64,000 nucleotides of DNA from Clostridia bacterium (GTDB lineage: Bacteria; Bacillota; Clostridia; Oscillospirales; CAG-382). Each line of letters opens with the position of its first letter. The stretch's first letter is position 1. The notes under the pieces were generated by a model. The model ran no database searches. It saw only the letters and a list, made by a program, of their open reading frames with translations, and was not told where the DNA came from. This document shows, piece after piece, positions 55,393 through 64,000 of this stretch. The stretch covers positions 8,191-72,190 of the forward strand of contig JAFQHL010000031.1 in assembly GCA_017397955.1 (NCBI GenBank), given 5' to 3'. Both the position numbers and the translations under genes were made by a program.

Positions 55393-57405
55393 GTGGATAA
55401 CCAAGCTTTTACTCTTACGGAAAAACAGCCTTGGTACAAAAGCCTGTTCTACGGCAGTACCTTGTTTGATTTCTGCATGGCACATCCTTATATAACCACG
55501 GCTTTTTTCAGCCTGTGCTGTCTGTTCATAGGTCAACAGCATCAGATACTTAAGGGAAATGCCTGTTATATGCTGGGTACAAACGGTAGCTTTATAGTCT
55601 TGCCGCGGCTTTGCCTTGTCATTGCGGTATTGTTTCTTGCGGTACAGCTGGGTTTTGGCATAAAATCGCGCTTAAATCCCGCGGCAGAGGATAACGGCAC
55701 TCCAAGGCTTATTGCTACGGCGGCGGTATTACTCTCCGTTTTTAGCTTTGGCTTTTTCGGCTTTAATGTTATCAGCCTGTATACGGTTGCCGTGCTTGCT
55801 GCACTTTGCCTTTGTGTTGGATTTCCTCCCGCAAAGGCGCTGATGCGGGCGGCGGCTGTGCTTGGCGGTGCGGGCGGAATACATTATCTTTCTTTTTCTC
55901 AGTATACCGTGGCGGAAAAGACCGTGCTTTTTGCGGCAATTATCTCTGCGGCAAGCCTTATTGTGCTTGCGGCAGACGAGGGCGTTAAGGTTAAGCACGT
56001 GCTGGGCATAATGTTTCTTATGGGCTTCGCACTCCGCCTGGGATATGTGCTTGACGTAAGCCTGCCTGATAACCAGCACGACGTTTTTTCAATATATTTT
56101 AACGCAAAATATCCGCGCCATAACACCTACATTTGGCATATATACGAAACAGGCAGTCTGCCCACAGAAAACGTTTACGCACCCAATTCCTTATCCCAAA
56201 TGTATCACCCGCCTTTGCATCATTATACGGCGGCGTTGTGGATGCGGTTTCAAAATCTGCTGGGGATTGATGCTTTTGCCGCCTATGAAAACGTTCAGTA
56301 CCTAACGCTTTTTTATTCAACAGCTGTTATGGTTGCGGCGGATAAGCTGTTTTGTCACTTTAAATTCAGCGGTGGACTTCGTATGGCGTTATTTGCGCTT
56401 ATAGCCTTCCATCCAAGCTTTTTTATACTTGCGGGCAGTGTAAATAACGATGCGCTTTGCGTTTTGCTTATGTTCATAGCGGCGTTGTTTTCTGTGCGTT
56501 GGTACGGTAATCCAAGCCTTTACAACACGGTGTGTCTGGCATTTGCCATCGGCGGCGCAATGCTGGCAAAGCTTTCGGGCGCTGTGGTAGCTTTTGGCAC
56601 CGCCTATCTTATGCTGGCAAAGCTTTTGGATTTACGGACAGGCATAGTCAACAACTTTAAGAATTTGTGGCATCGTTTTGTGGTCTTTGGCGCAATATGC
56701 TTCCCCTTAGGACTTTGGTGGTCATTACGCTGTAATCTTCTTTACGGGATGCCCCTTGGCTATGTACCCAGTATGGGGCGTGAGGGCAACCCACAGTTTT
56801 TGAAAGGCTTTAGCTATTGGGAACGCTTAAGCGGCAAGGGCACACTAAGTCTTTCAAACCCGTTCCCAAATATCGGCTTAACCGATATCATGGGAAACGA
56901 AGGGGAATTTTATGATTACGGCATAGCCCCCTACGCCTTTAAATCTTCCTTCTTTGGGGAGTATTTTAACAAGCTAAACACGTCCGACTTGCAGCACATA
57001 TTGGCGTGTGTTATGGCTTTTGCCGCACTGGTGCTTATACTGTACAGCGTTGTCGGGATGTTGATAGGCTTTTACGTAGGTTATCGCAACGACCGCAACC
57101 ACAACATCCGCAAAAATGCGTTTTTACAGCAGGGTCAAGAGCAACCCTTTAGGTTTGTGCTTATCTTTCATTTGGCAATGCTTGCAAGCTATACGGTGTT
57201 TTGCTTTGAATATCCCTTCACCTGCACTATGGATTTCCGTTATATCGTGCCCTGTTTGCTTACGGGCGCGGTTGGGGCAGGGGTATTACTTTCCGGTGAT
57301 TACAGATGGAAGAAGCCTTTAAGGTATGCGTATATAGCCGTAACCGTTGTATTCTGCCTTTCCTCAGCGGTGTTTTACGCTATAAGTTACGGCACAGCCG
57401 CGTAA
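55393..57405 (+). CDS. Polytopic GT-C glycosyltransferase (ArnT/PMT-like)
   Basis: QHD, YHPPLHH, SVNNDAL, AKLSG, DFRY motifs among many TM helices. Confidence 0.75.
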   Translation: MDNQAFTLTEKQPWYKSLFYGSTLFDFCMAHPYITTAFFSLCCLFIGQQHQILKGNACYMLGTNGSFIVLPRLCLVIAVLFLAVQLGFGIKSRLNPAAEDNGTPRLIATAAVLLSVFSFGFFGFNVISLYTVAVLAALCLCVGFPPAKALMRAAAVLGGAGGIHYLSFSQYTVAEKTVLFAAIISAASLIVLAADEGVKVKHVLGIMFLMGFALRLGYVLDVSLPDNQHDVFSIYFNAKYPRHNTYIWHIYETGSLPTENVYAPNSLSQMYHPPLHHYTAALWMRFQNLLGIDAFAAYENVQYLTLFYSTAVMVAADKLFCHFKFSGGLRMALFALIAFHPSFFILAGSVNNDALCVLLMFIAALFSVRWYGNPSLYNTVCLAFAIGGAMLAKLSGAVVAFGTAYLMLAKLLDLRTGIVNNFKNLWHRFVVFGAICFPLGLWWSLRCNLLYGMPLGYVPSMGREGNPQFLKGFSYWERLSGKGTLSLSNPFPNIGLTDIMGNEGEFYDYGIAPYAFKSSFFGEYFNKLNTSDLQHILACVMAFAALVLILYSVVGMLIGFYVGYRNDRNHNIRKNAFLQQGQEQPFRFVLIFHLAMLASYTVFCFEYPFTCTMDFRYIVPCLLTGAVGAGVLLSGDYRWKKPLRYAYIAVTVVFCLSSAVFYAISYGTAA

Positions 57406-57555: not shown

Positions 57556-58725
57556 TTACTTAACCTTCTTAGCAACTACAACGCCTGCCATGGAAACAAC
57601 TGCGAGAACTGCAAATACTGCAAGACCTGCGTCGCCGGTGGAAGGAGTAGAGTTGTTGCCGGGCTGTTCAACGGAAGTGTTGTCGTCTTCAGATTCAACA
57701 GGAGCGTTTTCGGAAGGATCGTCAACGGAAACGTCTTCGGAAGGATCGTCAACGGAAACGTCTTCGGAAGGATCGTCAACAGAAACGTCTTCGGAAGGAT
57801 CGTCAACGGAAACGTCTTCGGAAGGATCGTCAACAGAAACGTCTTCGGAAGGATCGTCAACGGAAACGTCTTCGGAAGGATCGTCAACGGGATCGGATTC
57901 GGAAGGATCGTCAACGGGATCGGATTCGGAAGGATCGTCAACGGGATCGGATTCGGAAGGATCGTCAACGGGCTCAGATTCGGAAGGATCGTTTACAGGA
58001 GGCTGTTCAGAAACGGGTTCGCCGCCGTAAACTTCGATTTCGTCGAACTGAAGAATGAAGCCTCTGTTGGAACCAGAACCGTTGTCATCACAATAGAAAT
58101 TGCCGTATTCAGCTTCGGGGCAAGAAGTGTCAAGAATTACTCTGATATAGGAAGCGTTAACGGTTGCAAAGGAAGCAGTGATATCGAAAATCATATCTCT
58201 GTTGTCAGCGGGAAGGTTTGTACCATAGTTAACGTTGCCCTGTTCGGAGTTAGCAACAACATCAAATCTCTTGGTGTAGTCAACTGCGGACCAGTTTGAA
58301 CCGTCAGAAGAAACTTCAACACCAACAAGGTTGCCTATACGGTTGCCGTAAATCTTAACAACGCGAACAACTACAGAAGAGATGCCCTTTTCTGCGCCAA
58401 GATTGAAGGTGTAGGTGTAGTTTCTTAAAGAACCCTTCATTTCAAGGGAGATACCAGCAGCAGCGTCCTTGATTTTGGATTCTTCGGTACCAACACGAAC
58501 CTTACCATCGGTAACCTGACCGGACCAAAGTTCCATAGTAGAGCCCTCTGTAGGAGGATTGCTGTGGTCACCAAGGTTGGGACTGTAGTATTCAAGAACT
58601 TCGTCGCTGGATACGAGGGTATAGGATTTACCTGCAACGAGGTTGGTGTCAGCTGCGCTTGCGGAAACTGCGAAGCAGCAAGCTACCATTACGGATGCGA
58701 GAAGAAATGCGATAAGCTTTTTCAT
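57556..58725 (-). CDS. Secreted wall-anchored protein: beta-sandwich (discoidin/CBM-like) domain, acidic repeat stalk, PSTGD sorting signal
   Basis: Signal peptide ending ASA; EVSSDGSNW...YIRV...DEIEVYG; DDPSE repeats; PSTGD-TM-KKVK. Confidence 0.8.
   Translation of the reverse strand: MKKLIAFLLASVMVACCFAVSASAADTNLVAGKSYTLVSSDEVLEYYSPNLGDHSNPPTEGSTMELWSGQVTDGKVRVGTEESKIKDAAAGISLEMKGSLRNYTYTFNLGAEKGISSVVVRVVKIYGNRIGNLVGVEVSSDGSNWSAVDYTKRFDVVANSEQGNVNYGTNLPADNRDMIFDITASFATVNASYIRVILDTSCPEAEYGNFYCDDNGSGSNRGFILQFDEIEVYGGEPVSEQPPVNDPSESEPVDDPSESDPVDDPSESDPVDDPSESDPVDDPSEDVSVDDPSEDVSVDDPSEDVSVDDPSEDVSVDDPSEDVSVDDPSEDVSVDDPSENAPVESEDDNTSVEQPGNNSTPSTGDAGLAVFAVLAVVSMAGVVVAKKVK
57709..57996. repeat. 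Coding tandem repeat, 27-bp unit, about 10.7 copies
   Basis: TTCGGAAGGATCGTCAACGGAAACGTC-type x6 then ...GGGATCGGA-type x4 plus a partial unit. Confidence 0.95.
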
Positions 58726-58893
58726 CTTTCTTTTTCCTTTCTTTGTTTTATTTTTTTTGCTGATGAAAAATGGCTGTTAACAGGCAAAGCCATATTAACT
58801 ACCATATATTAACACAATTGGATTTAGTTGTCAATATATTTTTTTGCTTTTCTAACGCCTTTGCCTATATTTTATGCAGTAAAACAAATGTAA

Positions 58894-59541
58894 TTACAGT
58901 AAAATTTTGTCAAGTTCCGAAAAATTTGCCGCTACGGCAGCGGCGCCTGTTTCTGTAAGCTCGTCCCTGAATATGCTGCCGTTAACTATCCCCACACAGG
59001 GTATACCGTTATCCGCCGCGCCTTCTATGTCATAACAGCGGTCTCCTATCATAACACAATCTTTCGCGCTTGCACCTGCCATTTCCATGGCGCGGGCTAC
59101 TATGGCGGCTTTGCTCAGGTGCGCATCGCTGAAGCTTGCGGCAGAGATATGGCTGAAATATTTGTCCACCTTTAGGTATTCCAAAACGGTTTTTACAAAA
59201 GGCAAGGGCTTTGAGGATGCTATAAGCAACACTTTGCCCTGTTGCACTGCTTTTTCAAAAAACTCTGCTGCGCCTGCATACAGACTGTTTTGGTATATTC
59301 CTTTTGCTTTGTAATGCTCTCTGTAAAGTTTTATGGTTTCCTCCACTCGTTCTTCTTCTATACCCGCATAGGTCATAAAGGAATATTTAAGCGGCGGACC
59401 TAAAAATTTTGCCATTGTTTTGCTGTCCGGCACAGGCACGCCTTGTTTTTCCATGGCGTAGGTAGCGGATGCTATAACACCGGGGGCAGAGTCGGTAACC
59501 GTACCGTCCAGGTCAAAAAGCAAATATTTTTTGTTTTTCAT
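58894..59541 (-). CDS. HAD-superfamily hydrolase (5'-nucleotidase/phosphoglycolate phosphatase-like)
   Basis: FDLDGTVTDS, GPPL, SSKP, IGDR; start at ATG 59541. Confidence 0.9.
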   Translation of the reverse strand: MKNKKYLLFDLDGTVTDSAPGVIASATYAMEKQGVPVPDSKTMAKFLGPPLKYSFMTYAGIEEERVEETIKLYREHYKAKGIYQNSLYAGAAEFFEKAVQQGKVLLIASSKPLPFVKTVLEYLKVDKYFSHISAASFSDAHLSKAAIVARAMEMAGASAKDCVMIGDRCYDIEGAADNGIPCVGIVNGSIFRDELTETGAAAVAANFSELDKILL

Positions 59542-59653
59542 AAAAAACGCACCTCCAAACATTATAATTATAACTCAAAACCGCGGTGATTACAATAAGG
59601 TGCTTGCAAATTTTGCGTTTTGGCTGTATAATAACTGTAAAGGCGGTGCTTTT

Positions 59654-60877
59654 ATGAAAAGAGTTTGCGTAATAGGCGGCGGCGCGGCAGGGATGATGGC
59701 GGCATATTTTGCGGCTTGCGGCGGTGCGGCGGTAACCCTTATAGAAAAGAACGATTTTTGCGGTAAAAAAATAAATATAACGGGCAAGGGGCGTTGCAAT
59801 GTGACAAATCTTTGCGACGTGGCGGAGTTTATTAAAAATGTGCCCACAAACCCCCGTTTTCTGTACAAAGCTTTGAACAATCTTAGCCCCGAGGACACTA
59901 TGGCGTTGTTTGAGGGCTTTGGCGTGCCCTTGAAGGTGGAGCGCGGCAGGAGAGTGTTCCCCGTGAGTGACAAGGCGGCGGATATATCGGCGGCGCTGAA
60001 AAACGCTTGCGCCGATGCGGGCGTTAAAATCCTCCACGGAAAAGCGCAAAGTATACAGATAAGCGAAGGCGCCGTTGTCGGGGTGAGTCTGCAAGGTGGC
60101 AGGACAATCAAATGTGAAAGCGTGGTTGTTGCCACGGGCGGTGCATCTTATCCCCGCACGGGCAGCGACGGCGACGGCTATCGCTTCGCACAGTCTGCAG
60201 GGCATACCGTAACGCCGCTGAGTCCGTCCTTGGTACCGCTTGTAACCAAAGAGCCGTGGTGTGCCGAATGTATGGGGCTTTCCCTCAAAAACGTTAACCT
60301 AAGCTTTTACAGGGACAGCAAGTTGCTGTACGGAGAGCAAGGGGAAATGCTGTTTACTCATTTTGGCATAAGCGGTCCGCTGGTGCTTTCCGCTTCTTCG
60401 CATCTGGGCGATTGTGACGGGGTAGAGGGTAGAATAGACCTTAAGCCCGCACTGGACAGCGAAACGCTGGATAAGCGCATACTGCGGGATTTCGGTGAGG
60501 CGAAGAATAAGGATTTTGCCAACAGCCTTGGTGCGCTTCTGCCCCAAAAGCTTATACCCGTGGTGGTGCGCCAAAGCGGTATTGACCCACACAAAAAGGT
60601 TAATTCCGTTACTAAAGAGGAAAGGCGCGCCCTTGCGGAGCTTATAAAGGGCTTAAAGCTGACCGTAACGGGTAAGCGACCGATTGACGAAGCCATTGTT
60701 ACCGCCGGCGGTGTTTCGGTTAAAGAAATCAACCCGTCTACTATGGAATCTAAGCTGGTAAGCGGCTTGTTCTTTGCAGGCGAGGTTATAGACGTGGACG
60801 CTTACACGGGCGGATATAATCTGCAAATAGCCTTTTCTACGGGTGCCTTGGCAGGCGAAAACGCGGCATTTGAATAG
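59654..60877 (+). CDS. HI0933/BaiN (YhiN) family flavoprotein
   Basis: GGGAAG, TGKGRCNVTN, ATGGASYP, FTHFGISGP, TAGGV, TGGYNLQ. Confidence 0.93.
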   Translation: MKRVCVIGGGAAGMMAAYFAACGGAAVTLIEKNDFCGKKINITGKGRCNVTNLCDVAEFIKNVPTNPRFLYKALNNLSPEDTMALFEGFGVPLKVERGRRVFPVSDKAADISAALKNACADAGVKILHGKAQSIQISEGAVVGVSLQGGRTIKCESVVVATGGASYPRTGSDGDGYRFAQSAGHTVTPLSPSLVPLVTKEPWCAECMGLSLKNVNLSFYRDSKLLYGEQGEMLFTHFGISGPLVLSASSHLGDCDGVEGRIDLKPALDSETLDKRILRDFGEAKNKDFANSLGALLPQKLIPVVVRQSGIDPHKKVNSVTKEERRALAELIKGLKLTVTGKRPIDEAIVTAGGVSVKEINPSTMESKLVSGLFFAGEVIDVDAYTGGYNLQIAFSTGALAGENAAFE

Positions 60878-60885
60878 ATAAAACA

Positions 60886-60910
60886 AAACGGGGCTGCAAA
60901 AAGCAGCCCC
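60886..60910. terminator. GC-rich hairpin after the flavoprotein gene (T-tract on the minus strand)
   Basis: AAAAC-GGGGCTGC-AAAAA-GCAGCCCC. Confidence 0.6.
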
Positions 60911-61034
60911 AACACTTTAATTATAGCGCAACTTGCGGCAAAAAGTCAATATAAAATCGTAGCCTTTTGGGCGTATTTGCCAATATTCTGCTCTTTGCAC
61001 AAAAACTTTTTATTAAATTTGTATAAAATGTGTA

Positions 61035-61063
61035 TTGAAAACGGGCTAAAACTGTGTTATTAT
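61035..61063 (+). promoter_or_regulatory. Sigma-A promoter, unit 1
   Basis: TTGAAA-17 bp-TATTAT with TGn extension; conserved in unit 2. Confidence 0.75.
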
Positions 61064-61347
61064 AAAGGCACAGGAAGGGTGAGTCCAATGTACACAAAAA
61101 GACAAAGCCCCAAAGTAACAGGCAGGTAGTTGCCGCCGCCCATGGCAGGATAGCCAAATAAAGTTGTTAGGCGGTGCGCTTGTTACAACGAACGGGGCGG
61201 TAAGATGTATTAACATCGCTTGGGAAGCTTTCTTAGAATTGCCGACAGTTTTTTCTTACTTAAAAGAATGTTTAACCAAAGGTTAAAATGTGGGCGGCAT
61301 TACAAGCGGACAGATAGCGGTGTAAGCAGTAGAAAGAGAGGTAACCA

Positions 61348-61380
61348 ATGAAGTTAGATAACAAGACAGAAATGAAATGA
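61348..61380 (+). CDS. Putative 10-aa micropeptide MKLDNKTEMK
   Basis: AGAAAGAGAGGTAACCA-ATG RBS; frame, length and residues conserved in copy 2. Confidence 0.5.
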   Translation: MKLDNKTEMK

Positions 61381-61427
61381 CCCTTGGCTGCGGAACAATG
61401 GAGGCAGTCAAGGGTCATTTCATTTTT
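61370..61427 (+). terminator. Long-stem terminator, unit 1
   Basis: 22-bp stem AAATGAAATGACCCTTGGCTGC / GCAGTCAAGGGTCATTTCATTT plus T-tract. Confidence 0.85.
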
Positions 61428-61617
61428 GCTGTAAAAGCGGAAAAATCCGATAAAAAACAAAAGCGACCTGCACACAAATGTGAACAAGCGCCCAACACTT
61501 TAAGTATAACATAAGCTATGGCAAAAAGTCAATACATAATTGCAGGTTTTAGGATGTTTTGACTAATGTTCTGCCCTTTGCACAAAAACTTTTTATTAAC
61601 TTTGTATAAAACGTGCA

Positions 61618-61646
61618 TTGAAAAATGGCAAAAGCTGTGTTATTAT
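61618..61646 (+). promoter_or_regulatory. Sigma-A promoter, unit 2
   Basis: TTGAAA-17 bp-TATTAT with TGn extension. Confidence 0.75.
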
Positions 61647-61940
61647 AGAGGCACAGGAAGGGTGAGTCCAATGTACACAAAAAGACAGAACCCCAAAGTA
61701 ACAGTCAGGTAGTTGCCGCCGCCCGTGGCAGGATGTCCAAATAAAGTTGTTTAGGCGGCAAGCTTGTTACAGTAAACGGGGCGGTAAGATGTATTTACAC
61801 CGTTTGGCGTTTTTAATAGTTTACGTGTTGTCGATACTTTTTCATGTATAAGAAATATTTTCAAAGGTTAAAATAGATTTGCGGCAATGTAAACAAGTAA
61901 AAGACAAAAACGGTGCAAACCACAGAAAGTGAGGTAACCA

Positions 61941-61973
61941 ATGATGCTGGATATCAAAAATGAACTGAAATAA
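61941..61973 (+). CDS. Putative 10-aa micropeptide MMLDIKNELK
   Basis: AGAAAGTGAGGTAACCA-ATG RBS; homologous to 61348-61380. Confidence 0.5.
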   Translation: MMLDIKNELK

Positions 61974-62020
61974 CCCTTGATTGCGATAATGATAAAGCAA
62001 TCAAGGGTTATTTCTTTTTT
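61967..62020 (+). terminator. Long-stem terminator, unit 2
   Basis: 18-bp perfect stem GAAATAACCCTTGATTGC / GCAATCAAGGGTTATTTC plus TTTTTT. Confidence 0.87.
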
Positions 62021-62113
62021 GCGGCAATTTAATTATCCCGTAAGCCTATGGACTTTACGGAAGCTTAAATATAAAAATAGAGGAGCCGCAGCCCCTCTAT
62101 ATTTTTTGCAAAC

Positions 62114-62647
62114 TTAATAGTTTTCTTTTCTCATTTCAAAGAAGCTTTGAGGATGTGCACAAACGGGGCACATTGCAGGAGCTTTTTTGCCTATTACTAA
62201 ATGACCGCAGTTGCGGCATTCCCACATAATTTCCTCGCTCTTTTCAAACACAGCCTGCATATCCACATTGTTAAGCAGTGCGCGGTAGCGTTCTTCGTGA
62301 GATTTTTCTATAGCGGCAACCATGCGGAACTGCGCGGCAAGCGCGGTAAAGCCTTCTTCTTCCGCATCCTTGGCAAAACGGTCGTACATATCTGTCCACT
62401 CGTAGTTTTCACCTTCTGCGGCGTGAAGCAGATTCTCGGAGGTGTTGCCCAGCTCACCAAGTGCCTTGAACCAAAGTTTAGCGTGCTCTTTTTCGTTATC
62501 AGCTGTTTTTTGGAAAATCTCTGCTATTTGTTCATAGCCTTCTTTTTTTGCAACTGAGGCAAAATAGGTATACTTGTTTCTTGCCTGACTTTCGCCTGCA
62601 AACGCTTCCCATAAGTTCTTTTCTGTTTTTGTACCTTTAAGTTCCAT
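62114..62647 (-). CDS. rbr: Rubrerythrin
   Basis: [28 protein letters not shown]...CPVC. Confidence 0.96.
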
Positions 62648-62792
62648 AATATCCTCCTAAAAAGCGAATTTTTACACTCCGATTATAGCAAATTAAGGAC
62701 AGTATTGCAAGCCCTTTTTGTTGACAAAAAAACAAAATAGTGCTAATATATAATAAGTTTAGTATGTTTACTTTGGGAAGGTAGGTAAAACT

Positions 62793-64000
62793 GTGGCAAA
62801 AATAGTGGTTTTTGACGGCAACAGTATACTTAACAGAGCGTATTACGGCATCCGTCCTCTAAGCACCGCTACGGGTATCCCCACAAACGCTGTTTATGGG
62901 TTTATTAACATCATCCTTAAGAATTTAAAAATGTGCGGAGATGCAGAGTTTGGTGCCGTAGCTTTTGATTTGCGTGCGCCTACATTTAGACACAAAATGT
63001 TTGAGGGCTATAAAGCCAATCGTCACGGTATGCCCGATGACCTTGCGGCACAGCTACCCTACGCCAAGCAGGCGGCAGAGTTCTTAGGGCTTAGGGTTCT
63101 TGAAAAAGAGGGCTACGAGGCGGATGATATCCTTGGTACGCTGGCGGCAAAATCCTGCGCTGAGGGTACGGAATGTATTATAGTTACAGGCGACAGAGAC
63201 AGCCTTCAGCTTATAAACGACTGCACTACCGTTTACCTTGCCGCCACCAACGAAACGAAGATTTTTGACCGCGCCGCGTTTAACGAAAAATACGGTGTGC
63301 AGCCCGAAGTGTTTGTGGATGTAAAGGCGCTTATGGGTGACAGCAGTGACAATATCCCCGGCGTAAAGGGGATAGGAGAGAAGGGTGCGCTTAAGCTGAT
63401 TTCCCAATACGGCAGCCTTGACGGTGTATATGAGGCTGTTGATGATATAAAGGGTAGTGTGGGTGAAAAGCTTCGTGCCGATAAAGACAACGCTTATCTC
63501 AGCCGGAAGTTGGCGGCTATTTGCAAGGAAGTACCCTTGGAAATTATGGTTTCCGATTGCCTTATACAGCGCAAGGACAAAGAGCTGTTGGAGCTTTGCA
63601 AAACTCTTGAGCTTAGTGGTATCGTCGAGCGTTTGGGTCTGAAAGCAGAGGAGCTCGCACCCCAAATTCAGGAAGAAGAGTTTAAAACCTTGGATGCACA
63701 GACGGCGGCAAAGGAATATATGACCGCAAACAAGGTTTATATATACGTGTGTGACAAAATGGTTTACGCTACCGACGGTAAGGGCGTAAATGTTTGCACT
63801 CCCTTTGTGGATGCAGAGGACTTTTTTGCCGCGGTAGAGGGAAAAAGCGTTTTTTGGATGTATAAGGAAACGGCAGAGGCGGCACGAAAGGCGGGCTTTG
63901 ACATAAATCCGCCCCATGGTGACGTGTCCTTGCTTGCCTATTTGGTAAACCCCATAGAGGGCGGTCAAAGCACCCCCGTAAGGGCGGCTAAGGCAATAGG
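62793..64000 (+). CDS. polA: DNA polymerase I (5' part; continues beyond window)
   Basis: Manual translation from GTG 62793: MAKIVVFDGNSILNRAYYG...TNAVYGF...YKANR...EADD...TGDRD...GDSSDNIPGVKGIGEK, the 5'-3' exonuclease domain. Confidence 0.95.
   Translation, partial: MAKIVVFDGNSILNRAYYGIRPLSTATGIPTNAVYGFINIILKNLKMCGDAEFGAVAFDLRAPTFRHKMFEGYKANRHGMPDDLAAQLPYAKQAAEFLGLRVLEKEGYEADDILGTLAAKSCAEGTECIIVTGDRDSLQLINDCTTVYLAATNETKIFDRAAFNEKYGVQPEVFVDVKALMGDSSDNIPGVKGIGEKGALKLISQYGSLDGVYEAVDDIKGSVGEKLRADKDNAYLSRKLAAICKEVPLEIMVSDCLIQRKDKELLELCKTLELSGIVERLGLKAEELAPQIQEEEFKTLDAQTAAKEYMTANKVYIYVCDKMVYATDGKGVNVCTPFVDAEDFFAAVEGKSVFWMYKETAEAARKAGFDINPPHGDVSLLAYLVNPIEGGQSTPVRAAKAI

Follow-up and report, generated by a model that had tools for sequence, protein, structure and literature searches.

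The window analyzed here is a 64,000-nucleotide stretch of the genome of a Clostridia bacterium (assembly GCA_017397955.1, contig JAFQHL010000031.1), and the element under study occupies positions 60,889-62,020. It consists of two tandem paralogous units, each with its own micro open reading frame (ORF); a search of the genome found these two copies and no others. The parts of each unit follow the same order: a sigma-A-type promoter, a 5' block in which a Shine-Dalgarno (SD) sequence and an ATG open a mini-ORF, a variable A-rich middle, an extended SD, a 10-codon ORF, and a terminator with a 17-bp stem (Table 1). In the window, the middle of each unit is a folded, A-rich RNA of about 240 nt. 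The flanks are a gene for an HI0933-like flavoprotein on one side and a convergent rubrerythrin gene on the other, with PolA as a further neighbor. We conclude that the unit, of which relatives exist in many Clostridia of the gut, is probably a real, so far undescribed micro-gene.

An earlier note on this DNA had drawn attention to the two 10-codon ORFs, and a direct reading of the sequence agrees with it on their positions as well as on the synonymous differences between them (TTA/CTG, AAG/AAA, TGA/TAA). It had also described ORFs of equal length below an RNA with indels. This was confirmed by an alignment of 60880-61440 with 61470-62030 (575 columns, 87% mean column identity), which identifies a tandem duplication with indels confined to the stretch 5' of the SD and none inside the ORF. 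The two copies alone prove little, because they are paralogues. The note overlooked that each ORF forms the 3' end of a transcript of about 360 nt with a second ribosome-binding module at its 5' end, that the units belong to a class-wide family, and that synonymous sites are unusually conserved in this family. Among the closest relatives, micro-ORF 1 has orthologues reading MKLDNKIELK in two genomes of the same genus, and micro-ORF 2 has orthologues reading MMLDTK(S/I)ELK in related genomes.

Table 1. Features of the two units and of the adjoining divergent sites, in window coordinates.
Feature	Position	Strand	Details
Promoter, unit 1	61035..61063	+	TTGAAA, 17 nt, TATTAT with TG extension (TGnTATTAT); conserved in homologues; AT-rich conserved DNA upstream
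Promoter, unit 2	61618..61646	+	TTGAAA, 17 nt, TATTAT with TG; promoter-like match
Predicted transcript, unit 1 (about 360 nt)	61069..61428	+	Promoter position and terminator
Predicted transcript, unit 2 (about 365 nt)	61652..62020	+	Promoter and fold
5' block, unit 1	61072..61090	+	AGGAAGGGTGAGTCCAATG; SD-like stretch and ATG at extreme 5' end of RNA; duplex with 16S 3' end -15.5 kcal/mol
5' mini-ORF, unit 1	61088..61129	+	13 sense codons, MYTKRQSPKVTGR, then stop
5' SD and ATG block, unit 2	61655..61673	+	
5' mini-ORF, unit 2	61671..61712	+	
Extended SD of micro-ORF 1	61332..61342	+	GAAAGAGAGGT; duplex with 16S 3' end -15.2 kcal/mol
Extended SD of micro-ORF 2	61925..61935	+	GAAAGTGAGGT; duplex with 16S 3' end -15.3 kcal/mol
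Micro-ORF 1	61348..61380	+	MKLDNKTEMK, stop TGA; ATG AAG TTA GAT AAC AAG ACA GAA ATG AAA TGA
Micro-ORF 2	61941..61973	+	MMLDIKNELK, stop TAA; ATG ATG CTG GAT ATC AAA AAT GAA CTG AAA TAA
Intrinsic terminator 1	61375..61427	+	17-bp stem 61375-61391 / 61404-61420, U tract to 61427; stop 61378-61380 in 5' arm
Intrinsic terminator 2	61968..62020	+	Stem 61968-61984 / 61997-62013, U tract to 62020; stop 61971-61973 in 5' arm
G+C-rich hairpin, then T run	60889..60911	-	9 pairs, 7 of them GC, tail TTTTGTTTTA; same arrangement in related loci
Divergent promoter-like site, unit 1	60920..60949	-	TTGACT, 18 nt, TATAAT; 11/12 consensus matches
Divergent promoter-like site, unit 2	61503..61532	-	TTGACT, 18 nt, TATACT

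Relatives of the unit were found well beyond this genome. A BLAST search with unit 1 matched 50 of the 164 genomes of the family, this one included, with hits in 9/12 genomes of genus g1, 31/61 of g4, 8/10 of g6, 1/10 of g11, and none in the other 11 genera. At family distance, two blocks alone are conserved, namely the first 35 nt of the RNA and the combination of SD, ORF, and terminator. A covariance model of the 3' block, built on an alignment (A2) of 23 sequences with 98 positions and 17 pairs, requires neither SD, ATG, frame, nor stop; of the genomes sampled, it recognized the element in 17 of 151 from the order, representing 10 of 30 families, and in 10 of 151 from the class, other orders included. 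A degenerate pattern scan of 185,579 species genomes returned at least 122 stretches, in records almost all labelled Clostridia. The covariance model recognized the element in 98 of the 100 loci supplied to it and found four extra copies that the pattern had missed; some genomes therefore carry two or three tandem units.

Clostridia-type names are borne by 77 of the 80 titled rows among the matches listed (Oscillospiraceae, Acutalibacteraceae, Faecousia, Eubacteriales, Ruminococcaceae, Monoglobaceae, and others). The remaining three are an "uncultured bacterium", a bin labelled Bacteroidaceae, and a Verrucomicrobiota row, the last of which was set aside as a chance match since it has no hairpin. 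The Bacteroidaceae-labelled bin holds a true copy of the unit on a contig of 2,989 bases (L083), which is probably a binning error rather than a transfer. Phage and plasmid collections yielded no match to the unit. The lone match on a viral contig proved to be an ordinary gene start without a hairpin, and an origin on mobile elements was rejected.

The arrangement of the ORF is maintained across these relatives. The earlier note held that homologues without the ATG, the ribosome-binding site, or the frame would count against a translated peptide; in alignment A2, each of the 23 sequences has SD, ATG, frame, and stop intact. A start codon (ATG, GTG, or TTG) followed by an in-frame stop in the 5' arm is present in 27 of the 28 order- and class-level matches of the covariance model, the exception being L044, where the frame ends five codons later, in the loop. 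All four of the copies found only by the model likewise contain ORFs of 9-10 codons with ATG, GTG, or TTG starts. In nearly all copies, the ORF has 8-11 codons. Independent one-codon deletions in L042 and L046 preserve the frame; in L062, a 1-nt deletion is followed by a new in-frame stop two codons on, still within the stem.

The pattern scan placed no constraint on the first base of the start codon, on the first and third bases of codon 2, on the third base of codon 3, on any base of codons 4 and 6-9, or on the last two bases of the stop, and it fixed the second base of codon 2, the GA of codon 3, and the AAR of codon 5. There are 116 unique cores among the matches listed, and the core counts given here refer to these. 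ATG is the start in all 116, at a distance of 7-12 nt from the GAGG, and the T-N-N position is a stop in 114 (TGA 60, TAA 46, TAG 8; the others TGG 1 and TGT 1). Codon 2 is TTA in 104 cores, TTG in 2, CTN in 4, and ATH in 6, while codon 3 is GAT in 109, GAC in 1, GAA in 4, and GAG in 2. The same variants occur across all copies, together with GTA at codon 2 and AAG or AAA at codon 5. In these three codons, the second base is constant and bases 1 and 3 vary (Leu/Ile/Val, Asp/Glu, Lys), which on comparative grounds is a coding signature.

The encoded peptides fall into three types, M(M)LD(I/T/N)K..., M(I/V)EPK..., and MTDFK..., with a common pattern of an aliphatic residue or Thr, an acidic residue, any residue, and Lys. 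The most common, MLDIKSEQK, accounts for 15 of 116 cores. As their last sense codon, 98 cores have AAA or AAG and 2 have AAC, and the C-terminal residue is Lys, Arg, Asn, or Gly. Peptides of related units were read by eye, as automatic calling from SD to ORF misplaced the start in about a quarter of the units. These comparisons speak for the earlier view that the pattern fits a translated peptide, the support being an invariant ATG behind a strong SD, a variable spacer, a closed frame, and variation of the coding type. Overall, we consider it likely that the micro-ORF is translated at all.

In a different interpretation, the SD-, ATG-, and stop-like letters would form an RNA motif, such as a binding site for a protein or for a C/U-rich small RNA (sRNA), and would never be decoded. 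The high nucleotide conservation of AUGUUAGAUA suits such a motif, as does the fact that TGA, TAA, and TAG are the transition-linked states of a G-C, A-U, or G-U stem pair. Several observations are hard to reconcile with it, however. The ATG is kept while its spacer changes in length, GTG or TTG takes its place in some copies, and where ATGATG loses its first ATG the second stays. The stop is also retained when the register of the stem shifts, as in L095 with its 1-nt shift. In addition, GGA is not enriched (553 observed, 685 expected), and there is no match to Rfam: a search of window positions 58000-64000 with Rfam 15 at E<=1 gave three sub-threshold matches on the minus strand, all outside the units, and a search of fifteen related loci at E<=0.1 gave nothing shared between loci, only one tRNA and four sub-threshold rows whose positions relative to the units are unchecked. 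A motif that is never decoded therefore seems to us quite improbable.

Other points weigh against the interpretation that the ORF is translated and its peptide is the product. Synonymous sites are too conserved for a purely peptide-level constraint, with TTA in 104/116 cores, GAT in 109/116, and AGT or TCA dominant among Ser codons. The codons favored by the family are rare in the long ORFs of the window, where TTA accounts for 7% of Leu codons and AGT and TCA for 14% and 5% of Ser codons. This fixity implies that some nucleotide-level requirement acts too, and an initiation region that is open and rich in A/U is one candidate among others. Radical changes affect residues 4 and 6-9 (I/T/N/P/F; E/S). 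The conservative changes at codons 2, 3, and 5 are partly built into the scan set because the pattern fixed those bases, and the counts overstate independence because the copies are related by descent. The stop is lost or shifted in three loci: in L044 and L130, TGT replaces it and the frame ends in the loop, and in L062 it is displaced as described above. The gene has no linked partner, transporter, or modifying enzyme and, to our knowledge, a stand-alone effector peptide of 9-10 residues has almost no precedent. Translation is argued here from comparative sequence, not from ribosome profiling (Ribo-seq) or peptide detection. As a separate observation, CTT is the commonest Leu codon of the window and occurs once in the 116 cores.

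The hairpin also tempers the coding evidence. It constrains the last codons, as the earlier note had cautioned: pairing of the last two or three with the 3' arm and the U tract puts AAA or AAG opposite UUU or CUU. Within the stop, the middle base and its partner in the 3' arm covary, forming G-C in 61 and A-U in 52. The count of stop codons is consequently weaker than it appears, because G-C, G-U, and A-U are the transition path of any stem pair. The hairpin itself is supported by covariation: in an alignment fitted to the model, which includes 16 reverse-strand reads of the same hairpins, 97.3% of 1,955 cells are paired and 17 of 17 pairs have compensatory changes, a result reached by 0 of 500 shuffles, whereas slid controls were 22-52% paired. 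Its lower stem reads ACCCTTG(A/G) in 99 of 145 unique hairpins, and its apex carries GTAAAGAAAC in 26 and GTGAAAGA in 11 of the 145 (for example L068, L078, L088, and L126).

The earlier note placed the stop codon in the 5' arm of the terminator, which is true for both stems; it occupies positions 4-6 of the 17-bp stem, so a terminating ribosome must open the helix. This geometry could serve translation-controlled termination, where a ribosome at the stop melts the 5' arm and sets the level of read-through into the DNA downstream. Leader-peptide attenuators (for example cat-86, ermC, and ARE-ABCF leaders) work by a ribosome opening a hairpin, have a similar-sized short ORF beside it, and precede the gene that they regulate. 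At 28 related loci, however, the nearest long ORF downstream is convergent at 17 and co-directional at 9, with 2 loci unclear, and unrelated proteins are encoded (aminotransferase, GH94, beta-lactamase-like, TraB, radical SAM, and others); unit 2 of the window faces the rubrerythrin gene. Because the downstream genes differ between loci and are mostly convergent, we regard the unit as a stand-alone gene and rejected a leader-peptide attenuator, and no role in read-through control is seen in the absence of a conserved downstream gene. Moreover, the U tract ends only about 75-85 nt past the start codon, a distance within which a ribosome would rarely beat the polymerase, and transcription and translation are uncoupled in Firmicutes. 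It is thus very unlikely that translation controls termination in these units.

Ribosome binding is predicted to be strong at both ends of the RNA. The 16S 3' end of the host itself is not assembled, the sole pattern match in its genome not being rRNA, so duplex energies were calculated with that of relatives. It reads GGATCACCTCCTTTCT in two relatives with assembled rRNA operons, with six exact matches in all. All four blocks of the window pair with this end at -15.2 to -15.5 kcal/mol; as a duplex of -15 kcal/mol or lower is reached by 364 of the 127,956 22-nt windows in the 64-kb stretch, the blocks are strong without being the strongest. The extended SD follows the pattern GAAAGnGAGGT, in which about 10 nt can pair with the 16S 3' end and only the variable n (A, C, or T) would bulge. 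It is predicted to be accessible, with a median unpaired probability of 0.67 and values above 0.5 in 85% of 117 RNAs, compared with 0.45 for the leader.

The 5' block begins 2-3 nt past the predicted start site and was recognizable by pattern in 124 of 183 units. Among these 124, the mini-ORF that it opens has exactly three sense codons in 89, two in 11, and four in 4, with 13 in the genus of the window; from base composition, a stop exactly at codon 4 would be expected by chance in about 6%. The codons of the three-codon form vary (MYR, MYK, MFR, MKR, MEK, and others) and the stop is mostly TAA. A report on cry3A of Bacillus thuringiensis (PMC4113751) describes a related device, STAB-SD, in which a stretch resembling an SD lies close to the 5' end, base-pairs with the 3' end of 16S rRNA, and shields the transcript from RNase J1. 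Stabilizers of this type bind 30S subunits and thereby lengthen RNA half-life. The block in this unit resembles it in being at the 5' end and in pairing at -15.5 kcal/mol. In contrast to STAB-SD, which acts without initiation, the ATG is conserved here and, in most relatives, so is an in-frame stop after three codons. One locus (L046, upstream of 1501-1593) has four successive 5' blocks ahead of its micro-ORF, three reading MEK, MEK, and MEN before a stop and one without an ATG.

The full-length RNAs are predicted to be stably folded, with minimum free energies of -119.2 kcal/mol (z = -6.29) for unit 1 and -98.9 kcal/mol (z = -4.14) for unit 2. Assembled contigs from the RNA libraries of two studies cover both units. 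For unit 1, they span 61112-61388 (X7, 1 mismatch) and 61118-61356 (X19, 0 mismatches), and for unit 2, 61662-61934 (X13), 61695-61947 (X7), and 61693-61938 (X20). Contigs of relatives, 90-95% alike, pile on the bin of the SD and ORF (61332-61395) with summed depths of 881, 3,153, and 12,267. These data suggest that the unit is highly expressed. As a point against the favored interpretation, such contigs cannot show strand, ends, level, or absence and could include DNA; uncovered stretches, such as the promoters and the upstream gene, were not counted as evidence.

The leader between the two modules is the least conserved part of the RNA. It ranges in length from 129 to 433 nt and is 39% A, and its motifs are lineage-specific, occurring in 18-29 of 124 units. 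A conserved riboswitch-like middle was rejected: the motifs CACGGCGGTG and ATATAGAT are confined to those 18-29 units, and the 3' SD is predicted to be open, not sequestered. A CsrB/RsmZ-type sponge for CsrA was also rejected, given the GGA count reported above, which compares 124 leaders with the expectation from base composition. In one sub-family (L038, L040, L055-L064, and others), the middle of the leader contains CACGGCGGTG..ACGC, a small hairpin with covarying stem bases, followed by TTATATAGAT, an anti-SD-like TyCrCCTTTTG, and a TTCTCCTTAGAGAA hairpin, again in 18-29 of 124 units.

Two SD and ATG modules on one RNA might also serve only to hold ribosomes. In this interpretation, ribosomes bind and translate the ORF, yet nothing depends on the peptide; the RNA would be the effector, keeping ribosomes for its own stability or for binding or sensing of 30S or 70S particles, and the stop would merely prevent non-stop stalling. 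It accounts for the conservation of synonymous nucleotides in codons rare in the window's own genes and for the radical changes at residues 4 and 6-9. The variable three-codon mini-ORF of 89/124 units can hardly encode anything, and the four 5' modules of L046 fit the same scheme. For mccA, part of one report (PMC4231749) indicates that ribosome binding, not translation, matters for termination and stability. Three findings run counter to this interpretation: a regulatory seed would lie in the middle of the RNA, and this part is conserved neither in length nor in motifs; codons 2, 3, and 5 vary in a coding manner; and nearly all copies keep the ORF within 8-11 codons. We therefore consider an irrelevant peptide unlikely, if with an appreciable chance of being correct.

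A conserved, divergent promoter-like site accompanies each unit on the minus strand (60889-60949 and 61470-61532), with the form TTGACw, 16-19 nt, TAnAnT; it is also present at L086, L095, L098, L120, and others. Of 48 related units whose upstream DNA is long enough, 26 have a site of this kind, compared with 1 of 48 on the plus strand. The predicted divergent RNA starts at about NTGTTGG with ATG, GTG, or TTG as its first triplet, passes at once into a hairpin and U tract, and would be about 30-75 nt long. Because this hairpin is directly downstream of the promoter-like site, it would end the tiny RNA. A comparison of the first 16 nt of the divergent RNA with the main RNA (RNAduplex) showed no complementarity, with a median z of -0.38 and 1 of 25 below -2.

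Among known systems, the unit works most like mccA, yet it fails that family's defining features. As described in passages of two reports (PMC4231749, PMC6495379; E. coli, H. pylori), mccA is a 7-codon ORF behind a very efficient SD and with an immediate intrinsic terminator, and its transcript is abundant, very stable, ribosome-bound, and retranslated. The short ORF, strong SD, and immediate terminator are all present in our unit, and abundance is consistent with the RNA-library contigs. On the other hand, mccA heads an operon that continues with mccB-E, it encodes a peptide that has Asn at its C-terminus and undergoes adenylation, and its transcript is about 105 nt long, whereas this unit has no linked enzyme gene, a C-terminus that is mostly Lys, and a leader of 130-430 nt with its own 5' ribosome-binding module. 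It is also chromosomal and vertically inherited in Clostridia.

Given this likeness, the ORF might encode the precursor of a modified or toxic peptide, whether microcin-C-like, another peptide made by ribosomes and modified after translation (RiPP), or a type I toxin with an antisense partner. The small divergent transcription unit next to the gene, as in some type I loci, and the small ORF ending a long 5' untranslated region would suit the last of these. A C-terminal Asn is required for adenylation of MccA; here the C-terminus has no fixed Asn, and since there is also no mccB (ThiF/E1-like adenylyltransferase) gene downstream and AAC is the last codon in only 2 of the 116 cores among the matches listed, a microcin C precursor was rejected. 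A Pfam scan found no mccB-like or other modifying enzyme among the window neighbors or the 20 neighbors of related loci that were scanned. Likewise, a type I toxin-antitoxin system was rejected: the peptides, of 8-11 residues rich in D, K, E, S, and Q, are hydrophilic, as the earlier note had pointed out in contrasting them with membrane toxins, and far too short for a membrane span; the divergent RNA, over the 16 nt compared, is not complementary to the main RNA; and no copies are carried by mobile elements such as those in the phage and plasmid collections. A modified or toxic precursor is therefore already largely refuted, and we give it hardly any weight.

Further comparisons were less close. 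An RRNPP/Phr-type signal was rejected since 9-10 residues leave no room for a signal peptide and no neighbor is conserved; export by another route is outside this comparison. Dual-function sRNAs (for example RNAIII/delta-haemolysin and SR1/SR1P) have ORFs of 26-43 codons and defined base-pairing regions. The unit resembles them as a stand-alone, terminator-ended small RNA with a small ORF, but differs in having 9-10 codons and no conserved pairing region that we could find.

Overall, we favor the interpretation that the unit is an abundant, ribosome-stabilized mini-mRNA whose product is a 9-10-residue peptide of the form M-L-D-x-K-x-x-x-K, although we see the chances for and against it as evenly balanced; the same even balance applies to the peptide being the effector. 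The unit would then be a stand-alone gene specifying an mRNA-like small RNA of about 360 nt with a translated 9-10-codon ORF at its 3' end. Ribosomes would load on both modules. The SD and start-stop module at the 5' end may hold a ribosome and guard against 5' exonuclease, blocking RNase J1 as STAB-SD does, while the 3' hairpin would block 3' exonucleases. With such a short ORF and such a strong SD, a ribosome may remain on the message and translate it repeatedly, as on mccA. By analogy with mccA and STAB-SD, an effect of translation on RNA stability is plausible. The output would be many copies of a hydrophilic M-(M/K)-L-D-x-K-x-x-x-K peptide, which could act as an intracellular modulator or an exported signal.

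For such a mini-mRNA, the position of the stop in the stem may mainly be a consequence of packing a tiny ORF against a terminator with its A tract and U tract. It would guarantee release of the ribosome ahead of the RNA 3' end and probably exerts no control over termination, which is unlikely to be its purpose. Opening of the stem by the terminating ribosome could expose the 3' end or delay release.

The unit is a small ORF on an sRNA-like transcript that is unusual for its size, breadth, and two-module design. The peptide strings MLDIKSEQK, MMLDIK, MLDIKS, MLDNK, and MMLDTK occur in no paper of the searchable literature, although supplementary catalogues of small ORFs, which were not searched, may list them; a keyword search of the literature likewise returned no report of an RNA of this kind. 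The terms Oscillospir-, Ruminococc-, Faecalibacterium, and Clostridia are absent from a 2026 review of sRNAs in gut commensals, so the RNA family alone would be new ground. Genes this small escape annotation pipelines and protein databases. Provided that the ORF is translated, a conserved peptide of 9-10 residues joins the biology of animal-gut Clostridia, a dominant and poorly studied group. The unit also provides a natural Gram-positive counterpart of the mccA mini-mRNA for the study of ribosome-dependent RNA stabilization, repeated translation of a short ORF, and termination at a stop buried in a hairpin.

More tentatively, and on balance doubtfully, this could be a stand-alone protein-coding gene family smaller than any other widely conserved one known in bacteria: class-wide, very abundant mini-mRNAs whose peptide has a specific cellular target and whose 5' start-stop module and cycling ribosome make a long-lived message. 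With a divergent promoter firing a hairpin RNA of about 30-75 nt, it would represent a new kind of regulatory unit. If true, the carriers would be spread class-wide, mostly in gut genomes of the Oscillospirales type, and the peptide would be cytoplasmic or exported.

Some further features of the window may be recorded. Two long ORFs, of 670 aa (55393-57405, plus strand) and 389 aa (57556-58725, minus strand), gave no Pfam hit at E<=0.001; both overlap with further ORFs in the list and may or may not be genes. About 100 bp of DNA 5' of each promoter (60960-61034, 61545-61617) is conserved across orders, with stretches such as TTTCTsC..TTTGCAyAAAAA and TTTGTATAAAATG. This DNA was matched to no known operator; it might represent an UP element, another promoter, or the site of a regulator. 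In addition, the minus-strand hairpin at 60889..60911 may also terminate the upstream HI0933-like gene.

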